24,000 nucleotides of DNA from a virus (IMGVR_UViG_2541047916_000002), one strand, 5' to 3'; positions 2,911 to 24,000 are shown, counted from the stretch's first letter. Notes: generated from the sequence alone by a model not told the origin. Numbers and translations: made by a program.

Positions 2911-2939
2911 GCCCTGGAGAAGGGCAATCGCTCTTTTAT
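2911..2939 (+). terminator. possible weak intrinsic terminator after int (GCCCT-GGAGA-AGGGC hairpin, then CTCTTTTAT)
   Basis: 5-bp stem hairpin with a T-rich tract 7 nt downstream; weak. Confidence 0.25.
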
Positions 2940-3886: not shown

Positions 3887-3898
3887 CGGAGACTGAAA

Positions 3899-5531: not shown

Positions 5532-5562
5532 GGAAGAATTCCCAGTACAAGGAGGCTGCCAC

Positions 5563-6633: not shown

Positions 6634-7228
6634 TTTCTTAACTTTCCATGCAGAAGCAACGCCTGACGGCGTAAACATCATGTACCGCAGCAACGATGGC
6701 ATGACAGAACGCGTTGAGGCCGTCTCATATATTGATGCCGTAAATCGTCTGGATGCCGGGGATTATGACGATAAACCAGATGAAGGTATGTCAATACATC
6801 TCGCTATAGCCGATGGCGGCAACCAGGGATATTTCGATTACACATCACAGCATAACGTCATTATGTGGAGATGGCTGATCGCAACAGTATTCATGCTGGA
6901 AATGAGAGAGGAAAACGGCACTGTCAGCATCATTGATGATACTGGCAATCCTTCCGAAGTGGCTGTTTATTCCAACGGCATCGTCGCCATGCCGCTGTAT
7001 CCAGTAGCAGAGCGCCTCGCTATGGCAAACAACATTGAGGGCGCGATGATAGAACGTTTTGGCATCGAGTCTGGCACAGAACGCGCCATCATTTTCTACA
7101 GAGCCATGATGGATGTGGAACAAGGAGCACTGACTCCATTTGGTCGTGAAACGCTTGCTGAACTTCACAACAGCTTTATAGCTGAACTGAATGAAAACGG
7201 CATGCCAGCGGAACCAGTGACGCACTGA
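6626..7228 (+). CDS. hypothetical protein (about 200 aa; start chosen at internal ATG 6626)
   Basis: GAGG SD before ATG 6626; the longer ORF from 6521 would overlap the previous gene extensively. Confidence 0.5.
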   Translation: MNNFLTFHAEATPDGVNIMYRSNDGMTERVEAVSYIDAVNRLDAGDYDDKPDEGMSIHLAIADGGNQGYFDYTSQHNVIMWRWLIATVFMLEMREENGTVSIIDDTGNPSEVAVYSNGIVAMPLYPVAERLAMANNIEGAMIERFGIESGTERAIIFYRAMMDVEQGALTPFGRETLAELHNSFIAELNENGMPAEPVTH

Positions 7229-7238
7229 GGATGGAACC

Positions 7239-7580
7239 ATGATTACTAAAAATTTCCGACTGAATGCGCTGGCAAATAAGTATGCGTCGGCACTGTATAA
7301 CCACATTACCTCCACCAGCGGCGGGGACTATTTCATGGTTGATGCGGACGGCGAGGCCGTCCGTGTGGAAATCGTCAATGGAGTAAAAGGCGTTCGCAGC
7401 CTGATCGATAGCTACACACTGGCAGCCATGAAAGTGTTCTACCCGCAGTGGGAAACCGTGGGGATCGAGCTTCTTGATCGTTGCGTCACTAAGGACGGAT
7501 TGACTGACGTCGGGCGTGAGATATGGCAAAGCATGGTTAATGACATGGGCGCAACTGTAGCGGGAGGTTCTCATGCGTGA
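7239..7580 (+). CDS. hypothetical protein (113 aa)
   Basis: GAGGA SD; ORF track. Confidence 0.5.
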   Translation: MITKNFRLNALANKYASALYNHITSTSGGDYFMVDADGEAVRVEIVNGVKGVRSLIDSYTLAAMKVFYPQWETVGIELLDRCVTKDGLTDVGREIWQSMVNDMGATVAGGSHA

Positions 7581-7944
7581 AAATGCAGAAATGGCGCTTA
7601 GCTCCGCAATCGGAGAGCAGGTGGCAAAGATTGCTGGTGCTGTGTGGATTCATAACCTTCATTCTACTGGTGAAGAGAAAATGGCAATTCAGACGCCAGA
7701 GGGACGCACCATTACTACATCTCTGAAGCCGTCAGATGTTTGTGATCTGATTTGCGCATTCATGTACCCAGCAATGAGGACTGCCCACGGCGATAAGTGG
7801 AAACTTGCGACAACCGCTGAATTTGATATGTGGCTAAACAATGATGGCATGCTGACTGATTACGGAATAACCAAGTGGCAGATGCTGGTTAGCCATATCG
7901 CAAACGCTATAGACCACGTGGGGTACGGTGATGCGAAACATTGA
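7573..7944 (+). CDS. hypothetical protein (123 aa)
   Basis: GGGAGG SD; overlaps the upstream stop. Confidence 0.5.
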   Translation: MRENAEMALSSAIGEQVAKIAGAVWIHNLHSTGEEKMAIQTPEGRTITTSLKPSDVCDLICAFMYPAMRTAHGDKWKLATTAEFDMWLNNDGMLTDYGITKWQMLVSHIANAIDHVGYGDAKH

Positions 7945-10423
7945 TCTTATCCGTCAGGTTATCAGTGCGTCTGAAAACAACTGGCCTCATGTGCTGGGCT
8001 GCCTGAACATAAATGTCCCTGACTCTCCGCGCCGTCATGCTCCCTGCCCTGCATGTGGGGGCAAAGATCGATTCCGGTTCGATGACAACGGGCGCGGTAG
8101 CTTCATCTGTAATCAGTGCGGCGCTGGTGATGGGCTGGATTTAATTAAACGCGTAAATAACTGCGACACAACAGAGGCGGCGCTTCTTGCCGCTGATGTT
8201 CTGGGTATTGATTACCGGACAACGGAAACACCAGAAGCCACCAGCCAGAAACGGGAACAACTGGAAACCGAGCGCCAGCGACGCGAACAGGAGCGCCTGA
8301 AAAGGGCAGAGAAGGACGAACAACAAAGACGGGATACGTTTTCCCGTCAGTTTGATGACATGCGCAGAAAGGCTGTAAACGGCAAATCTGATTATCTGGT
8401 TGCGAAAGGGGTAGGTGATTTTACATTCCCCGTGTTGCCCGATGGATCTCTGTTGCTGGCGCTGGTGGATAAATCCGGCGCAGTAACAGCAGCACAGACT
8501 ATTACCTCACATGGTGAAAAAAGACTCCTGACAGGTTCAGCAAAGCGGGGGGCATATCACGCCATAAACGCACCAGAAACAACACAGAGCATCTTAATCG
8601 CAGAAGGGCTGGCAACGGCATTATCTGCCCATTTAATTCGTCCAGAGGCGCTGACAGTGGCGGCGATTGATGCCGGGAACCTGTTATATGTCGCCCAGGT
8701 ACTGCGGGATAAATTTCCTTCAGCACAAATCATCATTGCTGCGGATAACGACCACAGCGAAGGAAGACAAAACACGGGGAGAATAGCAGCAGAAAAAGCA
8801 GCTTTATCTGTTTCTGGATGGGTGGCATTACCCCCGACAGATCACAAAGCAGACTGGAATGATTACCACCAAAAACACGGCATTAAATGCGCCACAGAAG
8901 CGTTCAATAAGTCAATGTACCAACCACAGGGTAATGGCGTGAAACAGGAGCCACAGACCATTGAGGGAAGCGATTTTAAGGTTATGGATACCGACCCACT
9001 GAAACCAAGAATAGAAAGCCGCGAGGATGGTATTTATTGGGTATCTCCGAGAGCTGACAGCCAGAGTGGAGAAATCATCAATAACGAAAGCTGGTTATGT
9101 TCTCCGTTAAGCGTTATCGGTACTGGCAGAGACGATAAAGACCAGTATCTCATTCTTCGCTGGCTGTCGTTTGGTTCTGAAACGCCGACAACCGCTGCCA
9201 TTCCACTGGCTGATATTGGTGAACGTGAAGGATGGCGCACACTTAAAGCTGGTGGGGTAAATGTCACGACCAAAAGCAGCCTCAGAGCAATACTGGCAGA
9301 CTGGCTACAACGCAGTGGCTCTCGTGAATTGTGGCGTGTTGCTCATGCCACTGGCTGGCAATGCGGAGCGTACATCATGCCTGATGGGGAAATCATCGGA
9401 ACACCTGAAAATCCTGTGCTGTTCAGCGGGAGAAGCTCAGCCGCAGCCGGATATACCGTCTTAGGGAGCGCGAAAAGCTGGCGTGATAACGTGGCGCGTC
9501 TGGCCTTTGGTAACTATTCAATGATGACCGGGATCGGCGCAGCACTGGCAGCGCCATTGATTGGGCTGGTGGGCGCTGACGGGTTCGGCATTCATTTCTA
9601 TGAGCAGTCGAGCGCAGGTAAGACCACCACGGCAAACGTGGCGAGCAGCTTATACGGCAACCCTGATTTACTGCGGCTGACGTGGTACGGAACCGCGCTG
9701 GGGCTGGCAAATGAGGCCGCCGCCCACAATGACGGACTAATGCCGCTTGATGAAGTTGGTCAGGGCGCTGATCCTGTCAGCGTTTCACAGTCTGCCTATG
9801 CGTTATTTAACGGTGTAGGGAAACTGCAAGGCGCTAAAGATGGTGGAAACCGGGATCTAAAACGTTGGCGTACAGTGGCAATCAGCACCGGAGAAATGGA
9901 TTTAGAAACATTTATCGCTACTTCCGGGCGAAAAACCAAAGCCGGGCAACTGGTGCGACTGCTGAATATTCCGTTGAGTAAAGCAGTACGCTTTCACGAT
10001 TACCAGAACGGAAAACAGCACGCAGACGCACTGAAAGACGCTTACCAGCATCACCACGGCGCGTCCGGGCGTGAGTGGATTAAATGGCTGGCAGACCACC
10101 AGCAACAGGCTATTAAAACCGTTCGTGATTGCGAAAGCAGATGGAGAAGCCTGATCCCATCCGATTATGGTGAGCAGGTTCACCGTGTAGCCGCGCGATT
10201 TGCCATTCTGGAGGCCGCATTGTTGTTAGGCGAGGTTGTAACAGGCTGGGATGCTCAGACATGCCGTGATGCGATACAGCACAGCTATAACGCATGGTTG
10301 CGCGAGTTCGGCACAGGTAACAAAGAGCATCAGCAGATTATTGAACAAACGGAGGCATTTCTTAATGCCTATGGGCTTAGCCGTTTTGCACCATTTCCAT
10401 ACAGCCCGGCAGATTTGCCCATC
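7928..10423 (+). pseudogene. P4 alpha-like primase-helicase, N-terminal 832 codons, interrupted by an IS21-family insertion (the last two codons of the 833-aa ORF, 10424-10429, are IS-derived)
   Basis: Primase zinc ribbon (CPACGGKDRFRFDDNGRGSFICNQCGAGDG), Toprim (IAEG ... AADNDH), P-loop (SSAGKTT); the reading frame continues in frame at 12841 once the IS and one TSD copy are removed. Confidence 0.75.
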
Positions 10424-10488
10424 TATTAGACGTCAACTAGTTTTGCCGACTCGCGCCAACTATACTGGCCGCACCCTTCAGTGCGACA

Positions 10489-11244
10489 TCAAGTCGCGCT
10501 TGTTACTGCCTTCGCTGTCTTTTTCCTGTAGCTTTCACCTTTCAGTTCGAACATATATCCGTGATGGATCAGCCGGTCTGCCGCCGCCACCGCCATAGTC
10601 TCATCCACGAAGATGCTGCCCCACATGCTGAACGGATGGTTACTGGTTATCACCAGGCTCCCACGTTCATAGCGATGCGCTATTAACTCGAACAGTACTC
10701 CCGTTTCGGCGCTGTCGCGTTTGACATAGCCAAGATCATCCACCACTATCACCCGGTAGCGATCCAGTTTCAGTAGCAGCTCATTCAGTTTCAACTGCGC
10801 TCTGGCTTTACGTAGTTCCTGCAACAACTCTCCTGCGCTGTAGAACCGGGCCCGGTAGCCCTGGCCTACTACGCCATCCACGATCGCTGCCGCCAGATGG
10901 CTTTTCCCCAACCCGCTGGCTCCGAACAGCAGAACGTTTTCTCCTGCATCAACCCAGTCTGTCGTTTCACAGAGTTGCCGGAACTGAGCTCCATTCAGTT
11001 CCGGCACCTGACTGAAGTCGTATTCGCTTAGCGTTTTGGCAACTGGCAACCGGGCCTCCTTTTTATAACGACGCAGTTTTTCACTCTCGCGCCACAGGAG
11101 TTCTTCATTGCATAGCGTCAGAAGATAGCGCGATGGTGTCCAGCCTTCTGCCAGTGCTCGTTTTTCCAGAGCGTGCCATTCAGCTCCAACTCGTGTCAGG
11201 CGTAGTTTACGCAGGCTGCGTTCAAGGTGATGGATATTGCTCAC
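10489..11244 (-). CDS. istB: IS21-family ATP-binding helper IstB
   Basis: 251-aa ORF with Walker A GASGLGKSHLA; typical IstB size and position. Confidence 0.85.
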   Translation of the reverse strand: MSNIHHLERSLRKLRLTRVGAEWHALEKRALAEGWTPSRYLLTLCNEELLWRESEKLRRYKKEARLPVAKTLSEYDFSQVPELNGAQFRQLCETTDWVDAGENVLLFGASGLGKSHLAAAIVDGVVGQGYRARFYSAGELLQELRKARAQLKLNELLLKLDRYRVIVVDDLGYVKRDSAETGVLFELIAHRYERGSLVITSNHPFSMWGSIFVDETMAVAAADRLIHHGYMFELKGESYRKKTAKAVTSAT

Positions 11245-12740
11245 TGCGAACCTCCCTTGCCACGCAGTAGTTGCTCATAACTGCTCAGGTTATGCTGTTT
11301 CACATTGACTACCGGCAACGCCTTTTCCTTTATACCCAGGAAGCGCATCAGCCGGTGCAGATCCACGTTTCCCGGGGTATTCAGCATCTGCTCCATACCT
11401 TTTGCCACGACTGAGATATCGTCGTATCCTGCAGCCAGTTTCAGAGCATGTACCATCAGCCTGCCTGCCATGTCGGGTTCCAGATGATTACATAAGCGAC
11501 GCCACAGCCTCCGCCATTCATCGTCTGGCAGGATGTCATTTCTCAGCGTTGCATGGCAGAACGCACCGGGCTTTTTTGCCAGACTGTCGATCACATGTCG
11601 GAAGTCGATACGACGGGCCCGCGTCTTCCCTTTTTCTGGTCTGACACGTGGGCAGCTCATGACCTCGCTGCTGCCAACGTAACAGCTCAGACGATCGTCC
11701 CATAACCGGACCCGTAACAGTTGACCTACAAGCCGGGAAGGTACGCTGTAGACGACGTGCTTCACATTGATGGTACTGCTGCGGCTAACCCTCACAGTCA
11801 GCTCATCATAGTCAGCACTGCGACGAAGCGGCAGCGGTTTCAGATGAAGACGTTCTTCCTTGACCAGATCCTGATTGTTACGGTTGTGCCGCATAACCTG
11901 CTGAGTGATGAAGGCCTGATATTCTTCTATGGTGCTGAAGTCGTTACTGCCCCGCAGTATCAGCGCCTGACAGATACGCCTTTTCAGATGTCCGTGGGCA
12001 CTTTCAACCGAGCCATTTTCGTGGCCCCGACCGGCATTATTGTGTACGCCCTGCATTCCGTAGTGCTGACAGAGAGCAGCATAACGCTCAGTCAGCTCGC
12101 GGCGTCCATCTTCGCCCTGTTGTTTCCATGCTGCCCTCAGGCTGTCCGTTTTATGTTCTACCGGCACTCCGCCCAGTTGTCCGAGGGCTTCCTGCAGACC
12201 TTCAGCCAGAGCAGAGAAGCTCTCACCACCCAGCACAACCCGCATCCAGCTCCAGTGGCTCCATTCCAGACGGAAGTGATACAACTTATGCGCCAACAAC
12301 TTACCGGCGATGGTGACAACTACACCTTTCAGTTCAGTAAAGTCCGACAGACCTCGCAGACCGGGCTGATGTCGCTGGCGGAACATGACCTCCTGCTCTG
12401 CACCATACTGTAGCTTCCATTCGCGGACCCGCCGTTGCATTGTTCTTCGAAGGCTGTTGGGGTACTGGCCGGGATATTTATCCTGTAGCATCTCCAGCAG
12501 AGTTGTTGGTGTCAGAGCCGGCCTCTCTTTCAACAGAGGAACAAGCATGCTGTCCCACACAGCTTCCAGAGGATCTTTGCGTGTGCGCCAGTGCCGAACA
12601 CTGTTTTTTGCCCACTCTCCTTTTTCGATCCGACGACCAGAACGGACTGAGATACCAGCCTTCATGGCCGAGATATGCTGAGTTATACCTTTCTTACGCT
12701 GAGTCATATAGTAACTGACCTGAGAAGTATTGAGCGTCAC
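11241..12740 (-). CDS. istA: IS21-family transposase IstA
   Basis: 499-aa ORF with N-terminal HTH and a DDE-type core; 4-nt overlap with the downstream istB. Confidence 0.85.
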   Translation of the reverse strand: MTLNTSQVSYYMTQRKKGITQHISAMKAGISVRSGRRIEKGEWAKNSVRHWRTRKDPLEAVWDSMLVPLLKERPALTPTTLLEMLQDKYPGQYPNSLRRTMQRRVREWKLQYGAEQEVMFRQRHQPGLRGLSDFTELKGVVVTIAGKLLAHKLYHFRLEWSHWSWMRVVLGGESFSALAEGLQEALGQLGGVPVEHKTDSLRAAWKQQGEDGRRELTERYAALCQHYGMQGVHNNAGRGHENGSVESAHGHLKRRICQALILRGSNDFSTIEEYQAFITQQVMRHNRNNQDLVKEERLHLKPLPLRRSADYDELTVRVSRSSTINVKHVVYSVPSRLVGQLLRVRLWDDRLSCYVGSSEVMSCPRVRPEKGKTRARRIDFRHVIDSLAKKPGAFCHATLRNDILPDDEWRRLWRRLCNHLEPDMAGRLMVHALKLAAGYDDISVVAKGMEQMLNTPGNVDLHRLMRFLGIKEKALPVVNVKQHNLSSYEQLLRGKGGSQ

Positions 12741-12840
12741 GCCATTTCCTGTTGGATCATGTAAATGACACTCAGGTTACAAAACCGGCCAGAATAATCG
12801 GCGCCAGGCGGACTGAGTTATTGTCGTCTCATAGCCCATC

Positions 12841-13104
12841 AAAGATTTAGCCGGATACCGTCAGCGTGGAGAACATGACGAAAGCCCAATGATTTTCTAC
12901 ACATTCCCGGCCACATTTGAAAAGGAGATCGCATGTGGTTTCAACGCAAAACAGTTTGCTGAAGTGTTGAAAAAAGCCGGGATGCTAACCCCACCAAACA
13001 GCGGTCGTGGATACCAAAGAAAATCACCACGTATTCAGGGACGACAAATAAACGTTTATGTACTCAATTACCAGCCAGGAGATTATAACTCATCTGAAGA
13101 ATGA
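12841..13104 (+). pseudogene. C-terminal 87 codons of the IS-disrupted primase-helicase
   Basis: Open and in frame with the primase ORF across the restored junction (10423 joined to 12841); the ORF-track entry 12889-13104 is its ATG-started tail. Confidence 0.55.
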
Positions 13105-13129
13105 GCTTCTTCATGTGCGTAGAAAAGGT

Positions 13130-13240
13130 GTTGGTTCAGTTGGTTCAGTTGGTTCAATTTGTAAAGAGTATTGTTTTATAAGGATTTTATTCTTTTTATT
13201 GAACCAACACTGAACCAACAACACGGTATTTTGAACCAAC
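13130..13240. repeat. iteron cluster, putative island replication origin: 3x GTTGGTTCA, 43-bp AT-rich spacer, 3x TGAACCAAC
   Basis: Six 9-mers read directly, immediately downstream of the primase gene, as in P4/PICI-type ori arrangements. Confidence 0.55.
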
Positions 13241-13349
13241 ACAATGTGACTGAATTGATGCGCACAACACCTGGCTGGCATCAGAGAGTGTTTTACGAGA
13301 CTTTCGTAAAATCCTGTGTACAAGGGCGTGACGTTTTTGAAAGTGAGCA

Positions 13350-13366
13350 CTACGAAATTTTCGTAG
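13350..13366. promoter_or_regulatory. 17-bp palindrome CTACGAAATTTTCGTAG (putative protein-binding site)
   Basis: 8-bp arms around a central base; two related copies at 22149-22184. Confidence 0.3.
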
Positions 13367-13560
13367 TTCAAAAAACAGCCTCTGAGAAGTTGTTATGCCT
13401 GTTCAGCAAACCATCCGCATAGCTGATCGCGAATCAAATTACCAATGGAGCCAGAAGCAAGGGCAGAACTGAAAAGCGCCTGCCGTGAAGAGTAATGCGA
13501 CACCATAAATATAGTTTTTAGAGTCCATAAAAAACCTGTCAAAACCTGACACACAGAACG

Positions 13561-13593
13561 ATGCCACCAGCTACTGAGCGGTGGCATTTTTTT
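13561..13593 (+). terminator. intrinsic terminator (ATGCCACC-loop-GGTGGCAT followed by T7)
   Basis: 8-bp GC-rich stem plus a seven-T run; separates the ori region from the cargo module. Confidence 0.6.
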
Positions 13594-13688
13594 GTGCTAT
13601 TTGTTTCATATTTTGCAATTACGATGATGAATATTGCGATTTGTGAAACTATAATAACTGTTGTTTTATACAGTTCTAAGGGGGCGTT

Positions 13689-13850
13689 ATGGCTATTTCA
13701 GTAAAGCAGGTATTGATAAGTGAGAAGCAAATGGAAGCGATAAAGAAAATTCAGGAAGAGCAGCGTAAAAAATCAGGAATTGGAGTAGCGCCAACTCTGC
13801 ATGAAATTGCACGAGGGTTAATAGATAAGGCGCTGGCAGGCTGTATGTGA
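13689..13850 (+). CDS. small protein (53 aa), possibly a ribbon-helix-helix-type regulator
   Basis: Not in the ORF track (under 60 aa); AAGGGGG SD 5 nt upstream; TATAAT at 13650-13655; RHH assignment is a guess from size and predicted strand/helix pattern. Confidence 0.3.
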   Translation: MAISVKQVLISEKQMEAIKKIQEEQRKKSGIGVAPTLHEIARGLIDKALAGCM

Positions 13851-13866
13851 AAATGGATGGCATCGC

Positions 13867-14328
13867 ATGGAACTAAAATTTATTGATAACCCTGTGCGAT
13901 TACAGGCCTTTCTTAACGAGCCAGGCAATACCGAAAATATTGTTGAGCCGGGGCACACGTACTACATCAAGCCTGATGCGGTATATCTCGGCATCTACGA
14001 AGGATTAGTGCTGGCTGGCGTTCATGAAGTGCGTAACTTCTGGCATAGCGTTGTTGAATGCCATGCGGTGTACGACCCCGGATTCCGTGGTGAATATGCA
14101 CTGCAAGGGCATCGATTATTCTGCAAATGGCTTCTCGAAAACTCACCATTCCTTAACAGCATTACCATGGTTCCTGACACCACCAAATACGGACGGGCAA
14201 TTATCCGTTTGCTTGGCGCTACCCGTGTTGGTCACCTTGATGATGCTTATATCAGATGTGGTAAACCCGTCGGCGTAACGCTTTATCAGTTAACTCGGCA
14301 ACAATATAAGGAATTCAGCGAATGTTAA
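13867..14328 (+). CDS. hypothetical protein (153 aa), first gene of a virion-protein-like module (position equivalent to P22 gene 14)
   Basis: ORF translationally coupled to the next gene; no motif recognised. Confidence 0.45.
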   Translation: MELKFIDNPVRLQAFLNEPGNTENIVEPGHTYYIKPDAVYLGIYEGLVLAGVHEVRNFWHSVVECHAVYDPGFRGEYALQGHRLFCKWLLENSPFLNSITMVPDTTKYGRAIIRLLGATRVGHLDDAYIRCGKPVGVTLYQLTRQQYKEFSEC

Positions 14329-14975
14329 TTACCCACATAGCTCATAAACATCTCAATCGTGCCGTATACGAAAAAGGCGGTGATGGTGGTGCCTCTAAAG
14401 CTCAGGCGAAGGCCCAGCAGCAGGCAATTGATTTGCAGCGCGAGCAGTGGAATACGGTGATGAATAATCTCAAGCCGTATGCAGAAGTCGGATTGCCTGC
14501 TTTACAACAACTACAAGGACTGATGACTCTGGAAGGGCAGAATAAAGCCGCGAATGATTTCTTTGGTTCTGGTTTATATAAAACACAGGCAGATCAGGCC
14601 CGTTATCAGAACCTTGTCTCAGCAGAAGCTACCGGGGGGCTTGGCTCAACAGCTACCAGTAACCAGTTATCTTCCATTGCGCCCATGCTTTATAACAATT
14701 GGCTTAGTGGGCAAATGCAAAATTATGGAAACCTGCTAAATGTCGGGATGAATGCGGCATCAGGGCAGGCAACAGCAGGGCAACTCTTGCAGGGGCTTGG
14801 CGCTATTCGTGCAGGTCAGGCGCAGCAGCCATCCAGTCTTGCGCGTGGTATTGGTGGGGCGGCATCAGGCGCTTTAGCGGGTGCGCAACTTGGTTCCGTT
14901 GTTCCGGGTATAGGTAATGTCGCCGGGGCTATTGGTGGTGGGCTTATTGGTCTTGTTGGGGGGCTTGGATTCTAA
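14322..14975 (+). CDS. ejection-protein-like, P22 gp7-type (217 aa) with Gly-rich hydrophobic C-terminus
   Basis: Size, Q/A-rich composition, C-terminal glycine-zipper-like segment and gene order (217/473/701 aa versus P22 gp7/gp20/gp16 at roughly 229/471/609 aa); homology not verified. Confidence 0.45.
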   Translation: MLITHIAHKHLNRAVYEKGGDGGASKAQAKAQQQAIDLQREQWNTVMNNLKPYAEVGLPALQQLQGLMTLEGQNKAANDFFGSGLYKTQADQARYQNLVSAEATGGLGSTATSNQLSSIAPMLYNNWLSGQMQNYGNLLNVGMNAASGQATAGQLLQGLGAIRAGQAQQPSSLARGIGGAASGALAGAQLGSVVPGIGNVAGAIGGGLIGLVGGLGF

Positions 14976-16396
14976 TGGCGACATGGCAACTTGGCGGGCT
15001 GCCTAGCATGGCACCGCAAAATGATAATGCTCCTCGTTCTTCCGTTCCTCAGCCTGTGCAGTATCAGCAGCAGCCAAACGTAGGTTTAATGGCGCTACAG
15101 GGGCTAAGAGGCGTTGCTGAGATTAATCAGCAGGCACGTCAACAACAGCGTAAAGCAGAGTTTCAGAAAGCATATGCCGGGGCTTTTGAGTCTGGAGACA
15201 GAAACAAAATGCGCAGTCTTATTTCTGAGTATCCAGAAGAATTTGAAAGCGTTCAGAAAGGGATGGGCTTTATTGATGACGACCAGAGAAATTCTATTGG
15301 TCATCTTGCGACTAGTGCTCAAATCGCATCTTCGCTCGGAACTGGGGCATTTGGAAAATTCATAGCAGATAACGAAGATGAAATGCGTCGCTTGGGAATT
15401 TCTCCTGAGTCTGTTGCCGAAATGCATGTTAATGATCCACAGGGATTCCAGCGGCTTGCTGGTAGTATGGCACTGTTTTCTCTCGGTCATGAGAAGTATT
15501 TCGATATCAAAGATCAAATGGAAGGTCGGGATATTGAGCGTGGCAAGTTGGCAGAAACAATCCGCAGCAATCAGGCTGGCGAAGCACTTCAGGCGAGAGG
15601 GCAGGATATTAGCCGAGCAAATGCGTTAACGTCAGCATATGCACCAACAGCAGCAATGCAGAATTACAATCAGTACGCTCAAATGTTAAAGGCGGATCCA
15701 GAGGGGGCGGCGGCATTTGCGGCAGCGGCTGGAATTAATACAAACGCCAAAAAATTAATGAGTGTTAGAGAAAACGATGATGGCACTGTCACAAAATACT
15801 ACACAGACGGAAGTGAAGAGCAGGGAAAACTAAACCAGCCAATATCTGGAGATGGGTTTCGTCCAATAGCTTTGCCAACAGCCCAAAAGATCATGGAAAA
15901 GTCGCCAGAAGGGGCTAAAAAAGCTGCTGGATTTGCATACAGGGTTAGGGATGCTCTTGATTCAATAGATACACTGAAAGACCAGCTTAGCCCACAGCGA
16001 GTGGCGATCATTAATAATGCTTTGGGTAATGGGACGCTGGCTAACTTAACGCTCAGCCCAATAGAGCAGCAATACGTTGTTAATGCTAATGACGCAATAA
16101 TGGCAATACTCCGTCAGGAAACAGGGGCATCTATCCTACCAGCTGAAATGTCCAAATATTATCAAATGTATTTCCCTCAGCCTGGTGATTCCACAAAAAC
16201 CATTGATACCAAGCGCCGGAAGATGGAAAACCAGTTCAATTCGCTGAAAGCTGCTTCTGGTCGAGCTTATGATGCTTTGCGGGTTATTTCAGCAGTTGAC
16301 AGAGGAACTTCTTCTTCGTCGCAGACATTGCCGCAATCTGAGCAGGTATCACAGCCAGCAGCCAGCAGTAATTTTTCTTCACTATGGGGTGATTAA
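14975..16396 (+). CDS. ejection-protein-like, P22 gp20-type (473 aa)
   Basis: TAATG coupling to the upstream gene; Q/A-rich low-complexity protein of matching size and order. Confidence 0.45.
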   Translation: MATWQLGGLPSMAPQNDNAPRSSVPQPVQYQQQPNVGLMALQGLRGVAEINQQARQQQRKAEFQKAYAGAFESGDRNKMRSLISEYPEEFESVQKGMGFIDDDQRNSIGHLATSAQIASSLGTGAFGKFIADNEDEMRRLGISPESVAEMHVNDPQGFQRLAGSMALFSLGHEKYFDIKDQMEGRDIERGKLAETIRSNQAGEALQARGQDISRANALTSAYAPTAAMQNYNQYAQMLKADPEGAAAFAAAAGINTNAKKLMSVRENDDGTVTKYYTDGSEEQGKLNQPISGDGFRPIALPTAQKIMEKSPEGAKKAAGFAYRVRDALDSIDTLKDQLSPQRVAIINNALGNGTLANLTLSPIEQQYVVNANDAIMAILRQETGASILPAEMSKYYQMYFPQPGDSTKTIDTKRRKMENQFNSLKAASGRAYDALRVISAVDRGTSSSSQTLPQSEQVSQPAASSNFSSLWGD

Positions 16397-18501
16397 TGGC
16401 TAAAGCATGGAAAGATGTTATCGCTTCTCCACAGTATCAGGCGTTAGCACCAGAACAAAAAGCGCAGGCTCAAGAGCAATACTTCAATGAAGTCGTGGCC
16501 CCGCAAGCCGGAGAAAGTGTAGAGCAGGCTAAGCAGGCTTTTTATGCTGCCTATCCACTACCATCAACGAATGAAATAGACCGATCCCAATCAGCAACTC
16601 AAAATATTCAACATACATCATCTGATAATTCTCTTGCGTCAGGGTATGCAAAGTTAGCTACTCAGCAAAGAGAGGGGCTTGAGCGTTCAGCAGAACAGGG
16701 AGCCAGTCTTGGGGCTGCGATGCGCGATGCTATAACAGGCGAAAGCCGAATGACTCCAGAGATGGAGAGACTGCAAAATGTCGCCTCTGCCCCAGAATTG
16801 AACTCACTAAGCATGGATGCCCTAAAGGCTGGATGGTCTCAACTTTTCGGCTCTGACGCGTCTCAGGAAAAGATTCTTCAGGGAATGGGGGCGACATTAA
16901 GGCAGGATGAGAAGGGGAATACTATCGTTTCTCTGCCATCAGGTGATTATGCCCTGAACAAGCCGGGTTTATCACCGCAAGACCTGACTTCGTTTCTTGC
17001 TAATGCGTTGGCGTTTACACCAGCGGGCAGGGCTGGAACGGTGCTTGGTGCCATAGGAAAATCAGCAGCTACAGATTTAGCACTACAGGGAGCCACCAGC
17101 CTTGCTGGTGGAGAAGATATTGATCCGTTACAAACGGTAATTTCTGCTGGCATTGGTGGTATTGGTAAGGGGCTGGAAAATACAGCGAGTGCGGTTTCGA
17201 GGGCTGTTCGTGGTGATATGTCGCCTGAAGCAAAGGCTGCTGTCGACTTTGCATCGGAAAGAAATCTGCCGTTAATGACCAGTGACATGCTGAAAGATAA
17301 AACCTTTATGCAGAGTCAGGCTCAGACATTAGGCGAAAGAGTTCCTTTTTTTGGAACCGGTAAGAATCGGCTGAATCAACAACAAGCACGAGAAAATTTA
17401 GTCAGAACATTTAGCGATGGTCTGGGTGGCATTTCTGATAAACAGCTTTATGAATCTGCGACTAAAGGGCAACAAAAATTCATTGAGGCAGCAGGAAAGC
17501 GATATAACCGCATAATTGACGCTATGGGGGATACCCCTGTCGATCTCTCAAACACGGTAAAAGCTATCGACAATCAGATTGCCGTGTTAAGCCGCCCGGG
17601 CAAATCTCAGGATAGAGCCGCGGTAAAAGTCTTGCAGCAATTTAAAGACGATATCACCAGCGGACCAAATGACCTGCGTCTGGCGAGGGAAAACAGAACC
17701 GATCTTCGAAAGCGATTTATGGCGTCATCTGACACTGTTGATAAAGATACGCTCCAGAAAGCCAGCGATATTATCTACAAGGCATATACGGCGGATATGA
17801 AAAAAGCCGTAGCCAAAAATCTTGGAGCAGACGAAGCCATTAATATGGCAAGGGTTGATCGCTCATGGTCTAAATTCAATGACATGATGGGAAGAACGCG
17901 CGTTCAAAAGGCAATAGCCAGCGGCAAGGCCACGCCTGAGGATGTAACAAAACTCGTTTTTAGCCAAAGCCCATCAGAACGTTCTCAGCTTTACAGGCTT
18001 CTGGATGACAATGGTAGGCAAAACGCACGAGCGGCCATAGTTCAGAATGCTGTAGATAAGGCGACTGATCCGTCTGGAAATATCAGTGTTGAGAAGTTTA
18101 TTAATGCGTTACACCGGAACAGGAAGCAATCAGCAACTTTCTTTAAAGGCGTACATGGAAAGGAACTGGACGGCGTTATTAAATACCTCAACGATACAAG
18201 ACACGCGGCAAAAGCGAACGTTCAAAACTTAAATGGTCAGCAGCTTTATGGATTGTTAGTTGGTGGTGGCATCATAAACGCAGCAGTATTAGCGGGGATG
18301 CTAAAAACGGCTGCGTTTGTTGTTCCTGCTGCTGGTGCCGTAGGCGGAGCAGCGAAGGCATACGAAAGCCCTGTTATACGAAATGCCTTGTTACGTCTGG
18401 CAAATACGCCAAAAGGTAGCACAGCATATGACAGAGCGATCAGTACGGTCACACAATCGCTCACCAGAGTCGCACAGGCATCACAAAAAGAAGCTCAATA
18501 A
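16396..18501 (+). CDS. ejection-protein-like, P22 gp16-type (701 aa)
   Basis: TAATG coupling; hydrophobic Gly/Ala-rich C-terminal segment; position and size. Confidence 0.45.
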   Translation: MAKAWKDVIASPQYQALAPEQKAQAQEQYFNEVVAPQAGESVEQAKQAFYAAYPLPSTNEIDRSQSATQNIQHTSSDNSLASGYAKLATQQREGLERSAEQGASLGAAMRDAITGESRMTPEMERLQNVASAPELNSLSMDALKAGWSQLFGSDASQEKILQGMGATLRQDEKGNTIVSLPSGDYALNKPGLSPQDLTSFLANALAFTPAGRAGTVLGAIGKSAATDLALQGATSLAGGEDIDPLQTVISAGIGGIGKGLENTASAVSRAVRGDMSPEAKAAVDFASERNLPLMTSDMLKDKTFMQSQAQTLGERVPFFGTGKNRLNQQQARENLVRTFSDGLGGISDKQLYESATKGQQKFIEAAGKRYNRIIDAMGDTPVDLSNTVKAIDNQIAVLSRPGKSQDRAAVKVLQQFKDDITSGPNDLRLARENRTDLRKRFMASSDTVDKDTLQKASDIIYKAYTADMKKAVAKNLGADEAINMARVDRSWSKFNDMMGRTRVQKAIASGKATPEDVTKLVFSQSPSERSQLYRLLDDNGRQNARAAIVQNAVDKATDPSGNISVEKFINALHRNRKQSATFFKGVHGKELDGVIKYLNDTRHAAKANVQNLNGQQLYGLLVGGGIINAAVLAGMLKTAAFVVPAAGAVGGAAKAYESPVIRNALLRLANTPKGSTAYDRAISTVTQSLTRVAQASQKEAQ

Positions 18502-18519
18502 CTGGTTAGCCACGGATGG

Positions 18520-18939
18520 CTAATTTTTGTTCTTTGCTCTCATCCACAGGTAAAGAAGGGCAAGAACAAGACAAAAAACAGAGAATAGATAACCTACCTC
18601 ATATGATGCGCCAAAAAAATTAGCTATTGATACGGGCAAAAAAGCTGAAGCGATCAAAATTGAAAGGCAAAAAATAAGACCAGTAATATAGTTTATTAAA
18701 TTCTTAAATGAGAAACGTTTTGCTTGATTTATGGTCTTAGCGAACGATCGCTTAACGACGGATAAAAGCAAATAGATGGCGACAGTTGCTAATGCCCCTT
18801 TCCACCAGTCTGGATATAGTTTTGCGACAATCAGACCAAGGAAAACCATGATGACAGCCTGAGCATTCACACCAACCCTCCCTTTAGCGTTGTTTAGATT
18901 GGCAATCATCATATATCCAAGACATGGCATTTGGTACAT
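18520..18939 (-). CDS. small inner-membrane protein (about 139 aa, 4 predicted TM helices), in the position of a superinfection-exclusion gene (sieA-like by synteny only)
   Basis: Four hydrophobic helices in the translation; convergent with and 18 bp from the gp16-like gene; start uncertain (track ORF extends to 19107 with a TTG start). Confidence 0.45.
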   Translation of the reverse strand: MYQMPCLGYMMIANLNNAKGRVGVNAQAVIMVFLGLIVAKLYPDWWKGALATVAIYLLLSVVKRSFAKTINQAKRFSFKNLINYITGLIFCLSILIASAFLPVSIANFFGASYEVGYLFSVFCLVLALLYLWMRAKNKN

Positions 18940-19701
18940 AGCTTGGGTCGGGATTTCAAATCCGCCCCCGTTGATGGGGTCGTTACAGTACGCGCATATC
19001 CGCTTTATGTGAAACAGGAAGATTTTTCTGATATCACTGCCACAGCAAAACACCAATTTCGAGACAAGTACGCGCGCGAGGGGTATCAGTTGCAAAAAAT
19101 TTTGCAACTACGTCCGACCAATACACACACGATGGCGGGGGATACCATAAAACTGTTCTCTACATGAGACAGAGTGGTGGTGATGTGTTGATTATCGGCC
19201 TATATGCGCACAGGACGCGCTATGACAATGTTTTATGCGGGTACACCAATCACATGTATCTGGTGTGATAAATCGCGTTACATGACCTTTCATGTTGTGC
19301 TGGTGGTTATCACGACGTTCTGAATCTGGCTTTTGTCTGATATTTTGCGACAAGTACGCGCGCGTAACATCGAAATTATCGGATGGCGTATGTTGCTGGC
19401 AAGATAAAGTCGGCGTAATACAAAGGCGTTACTTGATAGCAGCAAGATTACAACAATGGTTGTTGAATTTGAGCGATGTAAGGAATTGATTTAGGGAGGC
19501 GCTGATGGCTAAAAAGTTCCACTACCAGCGGATGAATGCGCCAGCGATGGCCGTTTGGTAGTAAAAGAGGAGCCATTCCTCAATCAGTTGAATACATTAT
19601 GCCAACTAAATGGGTGGGGGCACTGTGTGGGTATTCAGCGGTGACGGTATTTTTTAAGCCAAGGACTATCCGTAGCAGGGGGACTCATTTTGAAATATTT
19701 A

Positions 19702-20139
19702 TCATATGTAACTTATTATTTTAGATAAAGATTTCCAGTTAAAGAAAAAAGTTATCATTGATATAATCAAATATGCCCCTGCGAGTAGCAGGGCATAATA
19801 ATCCAGAGGCAGATTGCTGACAACAGGGGCAAACATCGAGATCATTGCTAATAGGCAGGCTGTGATCAGCGTAGTTCCTGTATCAAAAAGCCCCTCAATA
19901 ATGCCTTTTAGTACTCCGTTACTTTTTAGAGCGCCTACAATTCCCTTTGAACTATCAAAGCTACTTAGCATGGTGACTGATGCCAAAACAAAACCAAAGA
20001 GAACTCCAGAAATAGTTGAAAGAGCACCAGCAGCCGAAATGACAGCATTGTGATCTAGGTCGTGTAATAAATGGGCACCAGCAATAGCCATAGCTAGAGC
20101 AAACAATGACTTGGCAGCAAACAATTTCCGAGAACTCAT
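19702..20139 (-). CDS. 4-TM membrane protein (145 aa), second gene of a two-gene AT-rich operon
   Basis: Four hydrophobic segments; 12-nt gap from the upstream 361-aa gene; long ORF in AT-rich DNA. Confidence 0.6.
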   Translation of the reverse strand: MSSRKLFAAKSLFALAMAIAGAHLLHDLDHNAVISAAGALSTISGVLFGFVLASVTMLSSFDSSKGIVGALKSNGVLKGIIEGLFDTGTTLITACLLAMISMFAPVVSNLPLDYYALLLAGAYLIISMITFFFNWKSLSKIISYI

Positions 20140-20151
20140 AATGTATTCCTG

Positions 20152-21237
20152 TTACGTTTGACTAACCAAATAGTACTGGGTTAGATACCTAAGGTTGTCA
20201 TTCTTTGCTTGTAGCATAGCATTTTTAACGTCAGTATCGGTCGGATACCCATCTGCTTGGATAGGCACCATCTTCTTTACCGTAAGAACTTCGTCTACAA
20301 GACTTTTCTTCTTTTTATCGCCCTGAGCAACAACATTTGCTTTCTCAAAAGTTAAACGACCATCACCACCAGGGAACTTTTCTAGCATCTCCTTAAGGCT
20401 TTTTTTAACGTCATCCTCAAGCCATCCCTTTGCTTTTCTTTTTAATGGAGAATGTCCGCGTAACGAAATAGTCAGGTGGCTTGAACTGGTGCCTCTGATC
20501 ATCTCAATCATCTGATTCGCGAACATTCCATCGAGTTGATACTGTGCGGCATTGAAGTTTCTTGGGATGGCCACAGAAATCTCGCAGCTTCTTAGATTGG
20601 ATCCAGTTTCGAGTAGTTCTTTGATGCTTTCTTCTTTCCAAATGGCTTCAAAAGAAACAGGGACTCCGCGATCACTGGAGTTGAAAAGAAGGAAGGCTAA
20701 GTCACTATGGCGTGGACCTAAATGATTTAAAGACAATACTAGAATGTCTGTCTGAGGATAATAAATAAAGTATGTACGTTCTGAAAGAGTCTTTGCCCCG
20801 GCTAGAGGGATTTTCTCTTCCACCCACTCTTTATCTGTAATATATGCCAGTGTTGCGCTTTTTCTTCTTCGAGACATGAATCCGAAGTAGGAGCCATCCT
20901 CGGGTGAGATGTCTAGAAAATGAATTTTAAGTTCTCTTTCACCAAAGTCTGCATAGTGGGTCATCTTGAAGTCTTTAGAACACCGATCATACAGATTTTT
21001 AAAGGCCTCTGCGGTTAACCCCTTGTTACTAGTGCGAATATTCTCAGAGCTTGTGTAAAAGCCCACCCTTACAGATTTCAAACTTTGATCTTTTGGTGCC
21101 ACAGTCATTTGAGCTCCATTGTACTCTGCGATAGTTTTTGCACACCTTGAAATCAAAATCTCCATGTCAGTCACGAGAAAATAACTATGGATGAAACCCA
21201 TCAAAGGCATTGAATACAGGTGGCTTTTGAGAATCAT
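20152..21237 (-). CDS. hypothetical soluble protein (361 aa), no recognisable domain; first gene of the candidate defense operon
   Basis: Uninterrupted 361-codon ORF in AT-rich sequence where chance ORFs of this length are very unlikely; operon partner is a 4-TM protein. Confidence 0.6.
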   Translation of the reverse strand: MILKSHLYSMPLMGFIHSYFLVTDMEILISRCAKTIAEYNGAQMTVAPKDQSLKSVRVGFYTSSENIRTSNKGLTAEAFKNLYDRCSKDFKMTHYADFGERELKIHFLDISPEDGSYFGFMSRRRKSATLAYITDKEWVEEKIPLAGAKTLSERTYFIYYPQTDILVLSLNHLGPRHSDLAFLLFNSSDRGVPVSFEAIWKEESIKELLETGSNLRSCEISVAIPRNFNAAQYQLDGMFANQMIEMIRGTSSSHLTISLRGHSPLKRKAKGWLEDDVKKSLKEMLEKFPGGDGRLTFEKANVVAQGDKKKKSLVDEVLTVKKMVPIQADGYPTDTDVKNAMLQAKNDNLRYLTQYYLVSQT

Positions 21238-21588
21238 CCTAACCTGGTGACGGTGGTTCGCATATCCTGATGGATGATCAGTGATTAATCAATGCGCCAA
21301 GCAGATGTGTCTATGTGTTTGTTAATCATTGCATGACAGTAGATCGACATGGGAGATCACGTTATATAGTTGAATTGTTAGGATATCCATGCACCGATCA
21401 ACTGACTAGGCTGATGTGCTTTTTAGCAGGTGCCATATAGTAGTTAGGCGGTTCTGTGAAATGATTACTGTTCCAGCATAACTGCGGCATAAAGCGGTGC
21501 TATATAAGCTATTTGCTGGCGGATTTAGTCTTCACCGTTCATATATGTAGTGACTATTTGACAGAGTGTTAGTTCACGGACACTTTTT

Positions 21589-21688
21589 GTTGGTTCAAAA
21601 TGAGTTGATGTTGGTTCAATATTTTAGAAAAAACACAATAAAAACAACGCTCTTTACAAATTGAACCAACTGAACCAACTGAACCAAC
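21589..21688. repeat. second iteron cluster (2x GTTGGTTCA, AT-rich spacer, 3x TGAACCAAC), inverted relative to 13130-13240
   Basis: Reverse complement of 21646-21691 is identical to 13124-13169 (46 bp: AAAAGGTGTTGGTTCAGTTGGTTCAGTTGGTTCAATTTGTAAAGAG), then about 80 percent similar. Confidence 0.5.
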
Positions 21689-21724
21689 ACCTTTTTGCTT
21701 ATCTATATAATCTGAGAGGCAGAA

Positions 21725-22012
21725 ATGATAAGGGACAGGAAAGCTGAAGAGCTGGAGTCAAAAGGGCTATACCGGAGAGCTGCCGCACGATGGGCAGAAG
21801 TCATGATGCTGGCAAATGGCGATAAAGAACGTGAACATGCAGCAAACAGGCGCTCTGAATGTATCCGTAAGGCGGCACGCCCACCAGCAACTACAGACAG
21901 ATTCGGAGATTTAAGACAGGCAGTTAAGCGAACTCATTCGGCTCTTGGTATGGATGAGGAAGCGAGAGGGTACTTCAGGCGTTATCGCGATAAAGATTGC
22001 CAGAGACAGTAA
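21725..22012 (+). CDS. PerC-family transcriptional activator-like protein (95 aa)
   Basis: Motif AEELESKGLYRRAAARWAEVM...REHAANRRSECI resembles the PerC family pattern; GAGAGG SD. Confidence 0.55.
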   Translation: MIRDRKAEELESKGLYRRAAARWAEVMMLANGDKEREHAANRRSECIRKAARPPATTDRFGDLRQAVKRTHSALGMDEEARGYFRRYRDKDCQRQ

Positions 22013-22059
22013 TGCTCTCTCTGTTTTGGCAAATTACCCTTCACTTTGAAGGGAGCGGA

Positions 22060-22370
22060 GCTATAAAAATGGTTTTAGGTACATTCCTCAAATTGAGGTT
22101 TCCGAAAATATCAGCGGGTTAGCGATTAATCTGGCGAGTAATTAAACTGCGAAAATTTCGTAGGGGGTTACGAAAATTTCGTAGGTCTACTCATGGTTTA
22201 GGCTTACTTTCCCGACATCCCCCAATGGGGGGTTCGAAATAATCAATGGGTTAGGCTTACCTCCCCCCATTTCCTGCATTGCAGGTTTTCGAAAGAATCA
22301 ATGGGTTAGGTCATCGTGCAAATTTGCACTCTGCCAGCCAACGCAATTTCTCGTTGGCGGAAATATCAGG
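22060..22370. repeat. ORF-free array of direct repeats near the island right end: ATGG(G)TT(T)AGG x4, TTCGAAA-nAATCAATGGGTTAGG x2, ACGAAAATTTCGTAGG x2, GAAATATCAG x2
   Basis: Repeats read directly; location fits the P arm of attR, where recombination directionality factor and host-factor sites would lie. Confidence 0.35.
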
Positions 22371-22541
22371 TATTTACTGAACGAACGGTCTACCCGCCTG
22401 TTCAACTACCAGTTGTACATGGCTGCTTTATGTGCAAATGGTGGTGAGAGAAAATTATTTGGGGGTACTTTTGGGGGTATCTCCAAAGATGTAATGGGGA
22501 AATGTCTTTATATATCAATGTATTTTTATTGTTTGTTTTGT

Positions 22542-22551
22542 TCCTATTATC
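22542..22551. other. right-end copy of the att core segment (TCCTATTATC, identical to tRNA positions 1428-1437)
   Basis: 10-bp direct repeat of the tRNA 3' region, followed by sequence homologous to the int-upstream region at 1446-1609. Confidence 0.4.
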
Positions 22552-22701
22552 AACGTCTCCCCAAGTCTACTCAAGTATTTAAAAACCTCTTATAATCAGT
22601 ATATTAATGCCCCTTTTAGTCTTTTGACGTCTATTTAAGTACCCCAAACTCTACAAGCAATTGAGGGGATTTGCTGTTCAGTTTAGTGGAGATACCCCCA
22701 A

Positions 22702-23040
22702 GTGAAACTCAATGCCCGTCAAATAGACACTGCCAAGCCAAAAGAGAAGGCTTACAAGTTGGCTGATGGTGGTGGTCTGTACCTCCTGGTAAAACCTGGT
22801 GGAGGAGAATATTGGCGTCTCAAGTATCGTGTAGCTGGTAAAGAGAAGCTGTTAGCACTAGGTGTGTATCCTGAGGTCACCTTAGCTGATGCTCCTGCAA
22901 AACTTGAAGAAGCTAAAAGAGGTATCTCTGGGGGAATCGATCTGATGGAAGTGAAGCGAGAGGAAAAGATTGCCCGGGAAACGCAGTTAAACAACACCTT
23001 CAAAGATATTGCCCTTGAGTGGCACAGTAACAAATTATAA
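22702..23040 (+). pseudogene. truncated second copy of the P4-type integrase (112 codons, about 90 percent identical to the N-terminus of the 1610 gene), remnant of a tandem island
   Basis: Near-identical N-terminal 112 aa and upstream region; homology ends abruptly at 23037 and the sequence becomes AT-rich. Confidence 0.7.
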
Positions 23041-23475: not shown

Positions 23476-24000
23476 TCAATTAACATTAAGGTTTGATAAT
23501 AATTTTTTGTTGGCGAGTTCAAATGTTTTCATTTCATCATCTGATAGCCCGCTCCAGATTTTCTTTAGCATTACATTTTGAGTGTTTATTAGTTTTTGAG
23601 CAAGTGTAACTCCGTCAGGGGTTAAGCAAATACTTTTGCTTCGACGATCGTTTTTATTATTAATTCTTTTGGCAATATTCTTTTTTTCTAATTTGTCTAT
23701 GATGTGTGTGATGTTTGTTTTGGAGAATTGTAACTCCTTGTAAATATCAGAAGGGGACTGACAATAATCATCAGACATATATAATGAAACTAACACCATA
23801 AATGTTGAGGTGTTTATTCTATACTCGCTCAATTCATTTTCTATAATACTCTGGATTTTGTCATTTACTCTAATATATAAGTGTATTAACAGACTCTCCT
23901 GAGCCGGGTATGCCGGATTTTTGATTTTTTTGTAGTTTGTTATAGTTTTTAATAAATCTATATTATTCATAATTCCACCACACGGCAAAAGAAAACTCAT
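23476..24000 (-). CDS. MarR-family winged-helix transcriptional regulator (PapX/SlyA-like), start at or near the window edge
   Basis: Winged-HTH region (SPSDIYKELQFSKTNITHIIDKLEKKNIAKRINNKNDRRSKSICLTPDG); AT-rich gene; the ORF reaches the window end, true start may be the internal Met near 23970. Confidence 0.55.
   Translation of the reverse strand: MSFLLPCGGIMNNIDLLKTITNYKKIKNPAYPAQESLLIHLYIRVNDKIQSIIENELSEYRINTSTFMVLVSLYMSDDYCQSPSDIYKELQFSKTNITHIIDKLEKKNIAKRINNKNDRRSKSICLTPDGVTLAQKLINTQNVMLKKIWSGLSDDEMKTFELANKKLLSNLNVN

Follow-up and report, generated by a model that had tools for sequence, protein, structure and literature searches.

Does a gene that occupies the place of sieA also do the work of SieA? 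We raised this question for a stretch of 24,000 nucleotides of viral DNA (IMGVR_UViG_2541047916_000002, hereafter the window), where a first-pass annotation had pointed to a small membrane protein encoded directly after a gene resembling gene 16 of phage P22. SieA acts in the inner membrane and, among characterised exclusion systems, is the only one known to target the ejection-protein conduit of P22-like phages (PMC10883804). Escape from it requires changes in the C-terminal regions of gp16 (G532W, P546S) and of gp20, and the gp16 and gp20 proteins that SieA recognises are very diverse (PMC10883804). The published survey of SieA describes three homologous types, and the family analysed here lies outside it (Leavitt et al. 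2024, PMC10883804). In the following, we call the position immediately after gene 16 the slot, and its occupant in the window the slot gene.

Position of the slot gene

According to the first-pass annotation, sieA follows gene 16 in P22, and the genome record agrees. In NC_002371, sieA (164 aa) lies on the complementary strand, convergent with gene 16 and 22 bp after it, and is followed by mnt-arc-ant and then by the tailspike gene 9. The type-B sieA of the E. coli HS prophage HS1 is also convergent with gene 16, at a distance of 21 bp. The ORF of the slot gene ends 18 bp past the stop codon of the gp16-like gene (16396-18501), again in convergent orientation, and the description of this gene as placed like sieA of P22 therefore holds. 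It holds beyond the window as well. In all 34 loci with a homologue (the window, E. coli ABU 83972, 042 and APEC O1, Yersinia, Edwardsiella, metagenomic contigs and 17 IMG/VR contigs), the slot gene directly follows, and is convergent with, a gp16 of 61-100% identity. This is the case even for members whose membrane protein is just 33-39% identical.

These loci belong to two kinds of elements. The first are complete P22-like prophages. For example, the order in APEC O1 is coat, gp4, gp10, needle, gp14, gp7, gp20, gp16, slot gene, morons, arc/ant, tailspike and integrase. The second are islands that consist only of an integrase, regulators, a TOPRIM/DUF927 primase, ejection genes, the slot gene and PerC; they include the window, the 042 island, Edwardsiella and IMG/VR contigs. 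None of the loci carrying a slot-gene homologue holds a SieA of type A or B (tblastn) or the SieA motif, and P22 and HS1 lack the slot gene. The slot gene and SieA are thus mutually exclusive in these loci. Position alone is weak evidence of function, because the slot also holds unrelated small envelope proteins, namely a 106-aa single-TM protein in phage N7 and two signal-peptide proteins in Kapi1. Some loci carry toxin or protease morons near the slot.

Extent and conservation of the slot gene

The ORF had initially been delimited as 18520-19107. There is indeed a genuine ORF on the minus strand that ends at 18520, but its 5' end was placed too far upstream and the true start is at 18870. 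We aligned the start region of the window with those of an E. coli prophage, a Yersinia enterocolitica prophage and an Edwardsiella tarda island. DNA conservation starts abruptly at GGAGG-N5-GTG (18882-18868 in the window), with nothing conserved farther upstream, and all ten family members compared share the same aligned start, M/V-N-x-Q. Hence, we take the slot gene to be 18520-18870 on the minus strand, encoding 116 aa, with a GTG start codon at 18870-18868 and a stop codon at 18522-18520. A Shine-Dalgarno sequence, GGGAGGG (18876-18882, minus strand), lies 5 nt before the GTG; its GGAGG is conserved in four genera, and the same sequence also precedes the SieA-like allele of a sister island described below. 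The 195-aa reading from a TTG at 19107 is a maximal ORF only, and we dropped it: its 79 N-terminal codons are non-coding backbone that is also found upstream of the SieA-like allele. The RefSeq call starting at an ATG at 18909 is probably too long as well (WP_042025458.1, "hypothetical protein", 129 aa, in E. coli ABU 83972, where the sequence is identical to that of the window).

The slot gene is real and evolves under purifying selection, with a pairwise dN/dS of 0.12-0.45 between copies. Of 5426 complete E. coli genomes, 229 (approx. 4%) carry it, among them urinary and avian pathogenic lineages, and in 227 of these 229 it is full length.

The sequences on both sides of the gene are also structured. 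A hairpin (GGTTAGCCACGGATGGCTAATT) followed by a T-run was found in the 18-bp gap (18504-18525; terminator scan and alignments). It overlaps the stop codon of the slot gene, is kept with both alternative slot genes in the alignments, and has the appearance of a terminator for the ejection-gene operon. Upstream of the slot gene lies a conserved, non-coding island backbone of 540 bp (18871-19409, minus strand; blastn to loci L019, L038 and L041), which is common to islands with the slot gene, with the SieA-like allele and with other occupants. It contains a promoter-like site (19402-19375, minus strand; promoter scan), a 23-nt direct repeat (19056-19078 and 19342-19364) and a palindrome (19086-19105). 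The promoter scan gave no convincing promoter close to the slot gene, the best consensus match being approximately 500 nt upstream. An Rfam scan of 18300-22700 gave no match, nor did a distant blastn search of the 830-bp upstream region against phages. The GC content decreases from approximately 0.47 in the gp16 region to 0.41-0.44 over 18500-23000, a modest drop that is consistent with the AT-rich block described by the first-pass annotation.

A predicted four-helix protein of the inner membrane

Hydropathy and an AlphaFold2 model agree on four hydrophobic helices (residues 3-18, 23-50, 55-85 and 90-115), as expected from the earlier reading of the gene as a small protein with four transmembrane segments. 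The loops between them are 4-19 residues long. The model was built from an alignment of 12 sequences and is of moderate confidence only (mean pLDDT 66, pTM 0.40). In the family as a whole, the charge is +3 to +6 in the helix 2-helix 3 loop and +2 to +4 in the C-terminal tail (...LLYLWMRAKNKN in the window), and the remaining two loops are neutral or acidic. Given the basic loop and tail, the positive-inside rule points to an N-in/C-in topology for a protein of the inner membrane. The turn between helices 1 and 2 would therefore be at the periplasmic face. This turn, LIVAKLYPDWW, is the hallmark of the family and its most conserved element, in which KLYP is invariant. The predictions of membrane architecture agree throughout the family.

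The family is small. In a word-indexed search of 5.8 billion proteins we obtained 19 clusters, every one of them from Enterobacterales (E. coli, Salmonella, Edwardsiella and Yersinia). A HMMER profile search of 1.84 billion cluster representatives gave seven matches, all to the same family, of which four are new members with 35-38% identity. Scans of the 116-, 129- and 195-aa versions against Pfam, PHROGs, PADLOC and NCBIfam returned only noise. The Foldseek comparison of the AlphaFold2 model with BFVD found nothing below an E-value of 0.6 and is uninformative for a four-helix bundle modelled at moderate confidence. Neither the slot gene nor the 3.2-kb region was matched in the 50,697 phage records of INPHARED (tblastn, megablast), and scanning the contigs of GTDB species representatives with the family alignment revealed no confirmed locus. 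The first-pass annotation had named homology to a transporter or to another housekeeping membrane protein as the observation that would speak against a role in exclusion. The Pfam and NCBIfam scans showed no such homology, and this objection falls away.

The slot protein is not a SieA homologue

The same annotation suggested a profile search against exclusion proteins of the SieA and Imm types. No sequence or profile test showed the slot protein to be related to SieA or Imm. BLASTP gave no match to the SieA of P22. Aligned with hhalign, the family profile reached a probability of 0.5% against an alignment of nine type-A SieA sequences and of 0.08% against the type-B SieA of HS1 (L020:30466-31101), which is experimentally validated. 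Types A and B match each other (tblastn, E-value approx. 1e-19) and never the slot-gene loci. The 116-aa protein does not match phrog_7745, and precomputed Pfam assignments are blank for all slot-gene homologues and PF26849 for SieA homologues. SieA types A-C have in common a C-terminal cytoplasmic motif, FxRYPxEAxxFNK (PMC10883804). Scanning every locus in six frames, we found it in P22 and HS1 only. The 116-aa protein is not a SieA homologue.

What the slot protein shares with the SieA family (types A, B and C; PF26849, phrog_7745) is the slot itself, as the convergent first gene after gene 16 with a gap of about 20 bp, the kind of host element, and the character of a small polytopic inner-membrane protein. 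The two differ in size, SieA having 162-212 aa and the slot protein 116. SieA has three (type A) or four (types B and C) transmembrane segments and a cytoplasmic loop of about 50 aa, whereas the slot protein has four closely spaced helices and no long loop. The conserved motif of SieA is cytoplasmic, while the KLYPDWW of the slot protein is predicted to be periplasmic. Because the conserved motifs lie on opposite predicted sides of the membrane, the mechanism may differ from that of SieA.

Other small envelope proteins of phages and prophages have been proposed to stop genome entry after adsorption, namely T4 Imm, HK97 gp15, Sie2009 and the lipoproteins Llp, Cor and Ltp. They are directed at phages of other tail types and their topologies differ. 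The 116-aa protein had no Pfam or PHROG match to any of them.

Exchange with a SieA-family gene

The most informative comparison is with E. coli SCU-115, which has an island at the same thrW site, beside the same vat island, with a 204-aa protein in the slot. This protein matches the type-A SieA profile (hhalign probability 94.5%, E-value 8e-8), phrog_7745 (E-value 3.5e-4) and the SieA of HS1 (BLASTP E-value 8e-9, 33% identity). It also carries a RYPGEA motif (...NRYPGEARRARK). Judged by these matches, it is a divergent member of the SieA family.

In blastn, the window and SCU-115 are 98.4% identical over 13001-18521, i.e. through gp16 and the hairpin up to the slot stop codon, of which 18521, the end of the left flank match, is the first base. 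There is no alignment over the body of the slot ORF. Identity resumes at 95% from 18867, in the start-codon region, to 19409. Since the flanks match up to the stop codon and again from the start codon, the 116-aa protein and the SieA homologue are alternative alleles, exchanged CDS for CDS. The exchange spares the ribosome-binding site, the start codon, the terminator hairpin and the upstream region, and both alleles face the same ejection proteins. The gp16 of the two islands differ at ten positions, all in residues 64-198, and their C-terminal ~500 residues are identical. We also considered that the slot protein might be co-adapted to a special gp16, and rejected this because the same gp16 is paired with the SieA-like allele.

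The 540-bp backbone is present in 545 of the 5426 complete E. coli genomes, more than carry the slot gene. In this dataset the slot gene is joined to the backbone in 166 genomes, and the SieA-like allele is present in 103. The genetics around the slot gene are unusually clean; its function is what we infer.

The host element is a satellite of P22-like phages

The first-pass annotation drew its comparison with P22-type phages. Judged by its genes and its alignments, the element is an EcCIMP1-like PICI, a satellite of P22-like phages and not a phage. It is integrated at thrW and has an integrase, an AlpA-type HTH protein, an antirepressor, Ash, a TOPRIM/DUF927 primase, DNA-transfer genes and PerC. 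The RefSeq annotation of the identical region of ABU 83972 contains no capsid, tail or lysis genes. Because the slot gene is retained in an element that lacks these genes, we conclude that its product is not a virion function.

The ejection module lies on the plus strand and was identified with Pfam and PHROG. It comprises homologues of gp14 (13867-14328; DUF2824, E-value 1.5e-61), gp7 (14322-14975; PF25688, E-value 1.4e-63) and gp20 (14975-16396; Inj_translocase, E-value 4.5e-58), followed by the gp16-type ejection (DNA transfer) protein at 16396-18501. The latter has 701 aa and is intact, matching phrog_770 over its full length. RefSeq flags it as truncated in ABU 83972, a reading that we rejected given this full-length match and its annotation as intact in other genomes. 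The gp16 of the window has a single hydrophobic segment, at residues ~620-650 (hydropathy). The sites of escape from SieA in P22, G532 and P546, align by BLASTP with its residues 614 and 638, which are respectively beside and within this segment.

The window is closely related to the EcCIMP1 of MP1, with 98.9% identity over 1254-10423 and 97.8% over 12834-15135. Both elements belong to the same family and are integrated at the same site, at thrW between proA and yagU, beside a MarR-vat island, with 98-99% identity over a stretch that starts with the integrase, includes the primase and gp7 and takes in part of gp20. Within gp20, MP1 EcCIMP1 departs from the window. Its gp16 has 906 aa and a lytic-transglycosylase domain, the next gene, in the same direction, encodes a 232-aa lipoprotein (LLAGC lipobox), and both the slot gene and SieA are absent. 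The window, unlike MP1, has an IS21-family element that splits its primase gene, and a RexAB-like cassette as cargo.

EcCIMP1 depends on a P22-like helper phage, Kapi1, for its excision and transfer (Pick, Stadel and Raivio 2025, PMC11773190). It was shown experimentally that it "contributes to superinfection immunity" against Kapi1, and PADLOC and DefenseFinder detected no known defence system in it (PMC11773190). We excluded the slot gene as the cause of this immunity: the MP1 island lacks it, and the EcCIMP1 phenotype thus cannot be credited to the 116-aa protein. What the phenotype shows is that P22-like phages are subject to exclusion by this family of satellites, and in the loci compared here envelope proteins are recurrent occupants of the position after gene 16.

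Variable cargo beside the slot

The window loses its homology to the 042 and SCU-115 islands at 19409 and regains it at ~21566-21588, just before PerC, indicating that the cargo in between differs between islands. PerC (21725-22012, plus strand; Pfam PerC, E-value 3e-33; blastn to L019, L038 and L041) is a conserved backbone gene on the far side of this variable site. In the window the cargo is a two-gene operon on the minus strand. Its first gene (20152-21108) encodes a 318-aa protein with a predicted RexA-like fold, related to DUF6731 and phrog_7651 (model pLDDT 76.8). The second (19702-20139) encodes a 145-aa protein with four transmembrane segments (phrog_8552; hydropathy and PHROG). Gene order and sizes are like those of lambda rexA-rexB (279 and 144 aa), i.e. 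the gene of a RexA-fold protein stands immediately before that of a four-TM protein of about 144 aa. The fold match covers 156 residues, roughly one domain. There was no sequence similarity to lambda RexA/RexB (hhalign 0.3%, BLASTP no match) and no PADLOC match for the cassette. From the model and the gene order, 19702-21108 resembles a RexA/RexB cassette and is a candidate exclusion system. The lambdoid phage cdtI has the same gene pair, there as a moron in reverse orientation that separates Q from the lysis genes.

In sister islands, the same cargo site is occupied by an Abi-family gene (phrog_2158). Since the exclusion candidate in the slot adjoins either a Rex-like or an Abi cassette, the multi-layer exclusion or defence islet envisaged in the first-pass annotation is a reasonable description of the region.

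A possible role in blocking DNA injection

We estimate at about 0.5 the probability that the 116-aa protein is an analogue of SieA that keeps P22-like phages from injecting their DNA. The protein would be made from the resident element, either a P22-like prophage or an EcCIMP1-like satellite, and would sit in the inner membrane with its termini and the basic loop between helices 2 and 3 in the cytoplasm and the KLYPDWW turn in the periplasm. There it would keep the ejection-protein conduit of an incoming virion, made up of a periplasmic tube of gp20 and of the C-terminal segment of gp16 that inserts into the membrane, from completing the channel. It might intercept or mis-assemble the gp20/gp16 conduit, or mask a host factor that the conduit needs, e.g. 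YajC. Phage DNA, and DNA transduced by such virions, would be kept out of the cytoplasm. For a satellite, this would also amount to entry exclusion against further particles of the helper type. Four elements of this model are inferred: that the lysogen makes the protein, that exclusion results, that gp16/gp20 or a host factor (e.g. YajC) is the target, and on which side of the membrane the protein acts.

A more specific version of this proposal is that the exclusion proteins which block injection by P22-like podoviruses have a fourth class, founded by this family, which has no structural relationship to SieA, acts periplasmically via KLYPDWW on gp16/gp20 and is traded with SieA by satellites and prophages. 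We put it forward tentatively, as somewhat short of an even chance.

The protein could instead be an envelope-level defence or a lysogenic-conversion factor, for instance a membrane effector that depolarises or kills the cell upon infection in the manner of RexB, SieB or holins, or one that alters a host inner-membrane factor to some other advantage of the lysogen. The protein has four transmembrane segments and is about as large as lambda RexB; Abi, toxin and Rex-like genes abound in the cargo around it; and several unrelated envelope proteins use the slot after gene 16. We nevertheless find this explanation unlikely. The slot gene stands singly, with no conserved partner and with an upstream neighbour that differs in every context, and its homology with the prophage copies stops at the Shine-Dalgarno sequence. 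We found no Pfam, PADLOC or PHROG match to RexB, SieB, holins or Abi effectors, and the gene for which it is exactly exchanged is a SieA homologue and not an Abi gene.

Less likely again is a selfish or neutral moron that rides in a recombination-prone slot and has no role in conflicts between phages. The tiny size of the family, its confinement to Enterobacterales and the lack of a known domain would be expected of such a gene, and P22-like phages are known to be mosaic between genes 16 and 9 (PMC10883804). Yet purifying selection has maintained the protein, with invariant motifs, down to 33% identity, the gene is intact in almost all of its E. coli carriers (see above), and its placement and translation signals are conserved.

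Finally, that the slot gene serves the ejection module, e.g. by shielding the membrane of the producing cell from newly made gp16 or by aiding gp16, might be suggested by its adjoining one gp16 subtype in 34 of 34 loci and by a homology block between islands and prophages that spans gp20/gp16 through the slot gene and ends at its Shine-Dalgarno sequence, but this is very improbable, as the gene is transcribed against the late/ejection operon, a gp16 with identical C-terminal ~500 residues is paired with the SieA-like gene in 103 genomes, phage N7 has a gp16 that is 68% identical yet no slot gene, and the slot gene evolves faster than gp16 (33-39% versus 61-70% identity).

Implications for phage satellites and prophages

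The gene family is uncharacterised. The function proposed for it is of a known kind, to which the protein would be a new and unrelated solution. A second, unrelated membrane protein with the same slot, the same signals and the same gp16 as a SieA-family protein offers a natural comparison for locating the vulnerable part of the ejection conduit. More generally, the region after gene 16 in these satellites has the look of a compact site into which envelope-level and abortive-infection defences are swapped, including the four-TM protein, the SieA-like protein, the lipoprotein, the RexAB-like pair and the Abi-family gene. The slot occupants are concrete candidate genes for the superinfection immunity of EcCIMP1-type satellites (PMC11773190). 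If the slot protein does represent a fourth class of injection blockers, this would identify the kind of determinant behind satellite-mediated superinfection immunity, and satellites would be using it as an entry exclusion against virions of their own helper type.

An EcCIMP1-like satellite with P22-type ejection genes

The region from the thrW integrase through PerC (1610-22012 of the window) is an EcCIMP1-like phage-inducible chromosomal island (PICI), with related loci in E. coli MP1 (L041), 042 (L019) and SCU-115 (L038) and in Edwardsiella (L004). In this satellite family, the P22-type ejection genes gp14, gp7, gp20 and gp16 are intact, and there are no capsid, tail or lysis genes. The types of gp20 and gp16 vary among island copies, and gp16 of the MP1 island has 906 aa and a lytic-transglycosylase domain. 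RefSeq labels gp16 of ABU 83972 (L001 18097-19912; 16396-18501 in the window) a pseudogene "missing C-terminus". The window ORF (16396-18501, 701 aa) is uninterrupted, its phrog_770 match runs over the full length, and the annotations of strains 042 and SCU-115 list the same gp16 as complete. The pseudogene label is probably an annotation artefact.

The TOPRIM/DUF927 primase gene of the window is interrupted by a 2.4-kb IS21-family element (10424-12833), which encodes, on the minus strand, an IstA-like protein (499 aa, 11241-12740) and IstB (251 aa, 10489-11244; Pfam IstB_IS21, E 9.5e-62). Since the primase is uninterrupted in ABU 83972, 042 and MP1, the island in the window is probably defective in replication. 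An integrase Arm DNA-binding domain fragment marks the border between the PICI and an adjacent MarR-vat island of low GC (0.29-0.31) (window 22702-23040 and 23476-24000). This arrangement is identical in MP1 and ABU 83972.

Occupants of the position after gp16

In 103 complete E. coli genomes, the position directly after gp16 is filled by a divergent SieA-family protein of 204 aa, TNRYPGEARRARK, encoded on the minus strand in SCU-115 (L038:6386-7000; also L040:2886-3500). The SCU-115 protein has 33% identity across 118 aa with the type-B SieA of the E. coli HS prophage (HS1). In these genomes the gene is carried by satellites, not prophages; all the sieA genes studied in detail by a published survey are located within a P22-like prophage (PMC10883804).

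Two sequence features stand out in the 540 bp of conserved, non-coding backbone that precede the slot gene: a 23-nt direct repeat (19056-19078 and 19342-19364), whose core CGCGCGCGTACTTGTC occurs in two copies 286 bp apart (chance expectation 0), and a perfect palindrome, GTTGCAAAATTTTTTGCAAC (19086-19105). These elements may be regulator-binding sites.

The surroundings of the slot are a general hotspot of moron and defence genes. Near the slot, other copies carry toxins (one of the Doc family, with a partner, and YafO) as well as a ClpP-like protease, a peptidase S9 and a DUF805 protein, with cargo regions at L019 11945-13428 (042), L018 9527-11136 (APEC O1) and L005 7764-9945. The position after gene 16 itself holds other envelope proteins elsewhere: EcCIMP1 of MP1 has a 232-aa lipoprotein there (L041:11749-12447, minus strand), Kapi1 two signal-peptide proteins (Kapi1_059/_060, L042:32628-33170) and phage N7 a 106-aa single-TM protein (phrog_10450, L017:5902-6222). 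Superinfection immunity was reported for EcCIMP1 without explanation (PMC11773190), and the 232-aa lipoprotein is a candidate for the factor behind it.
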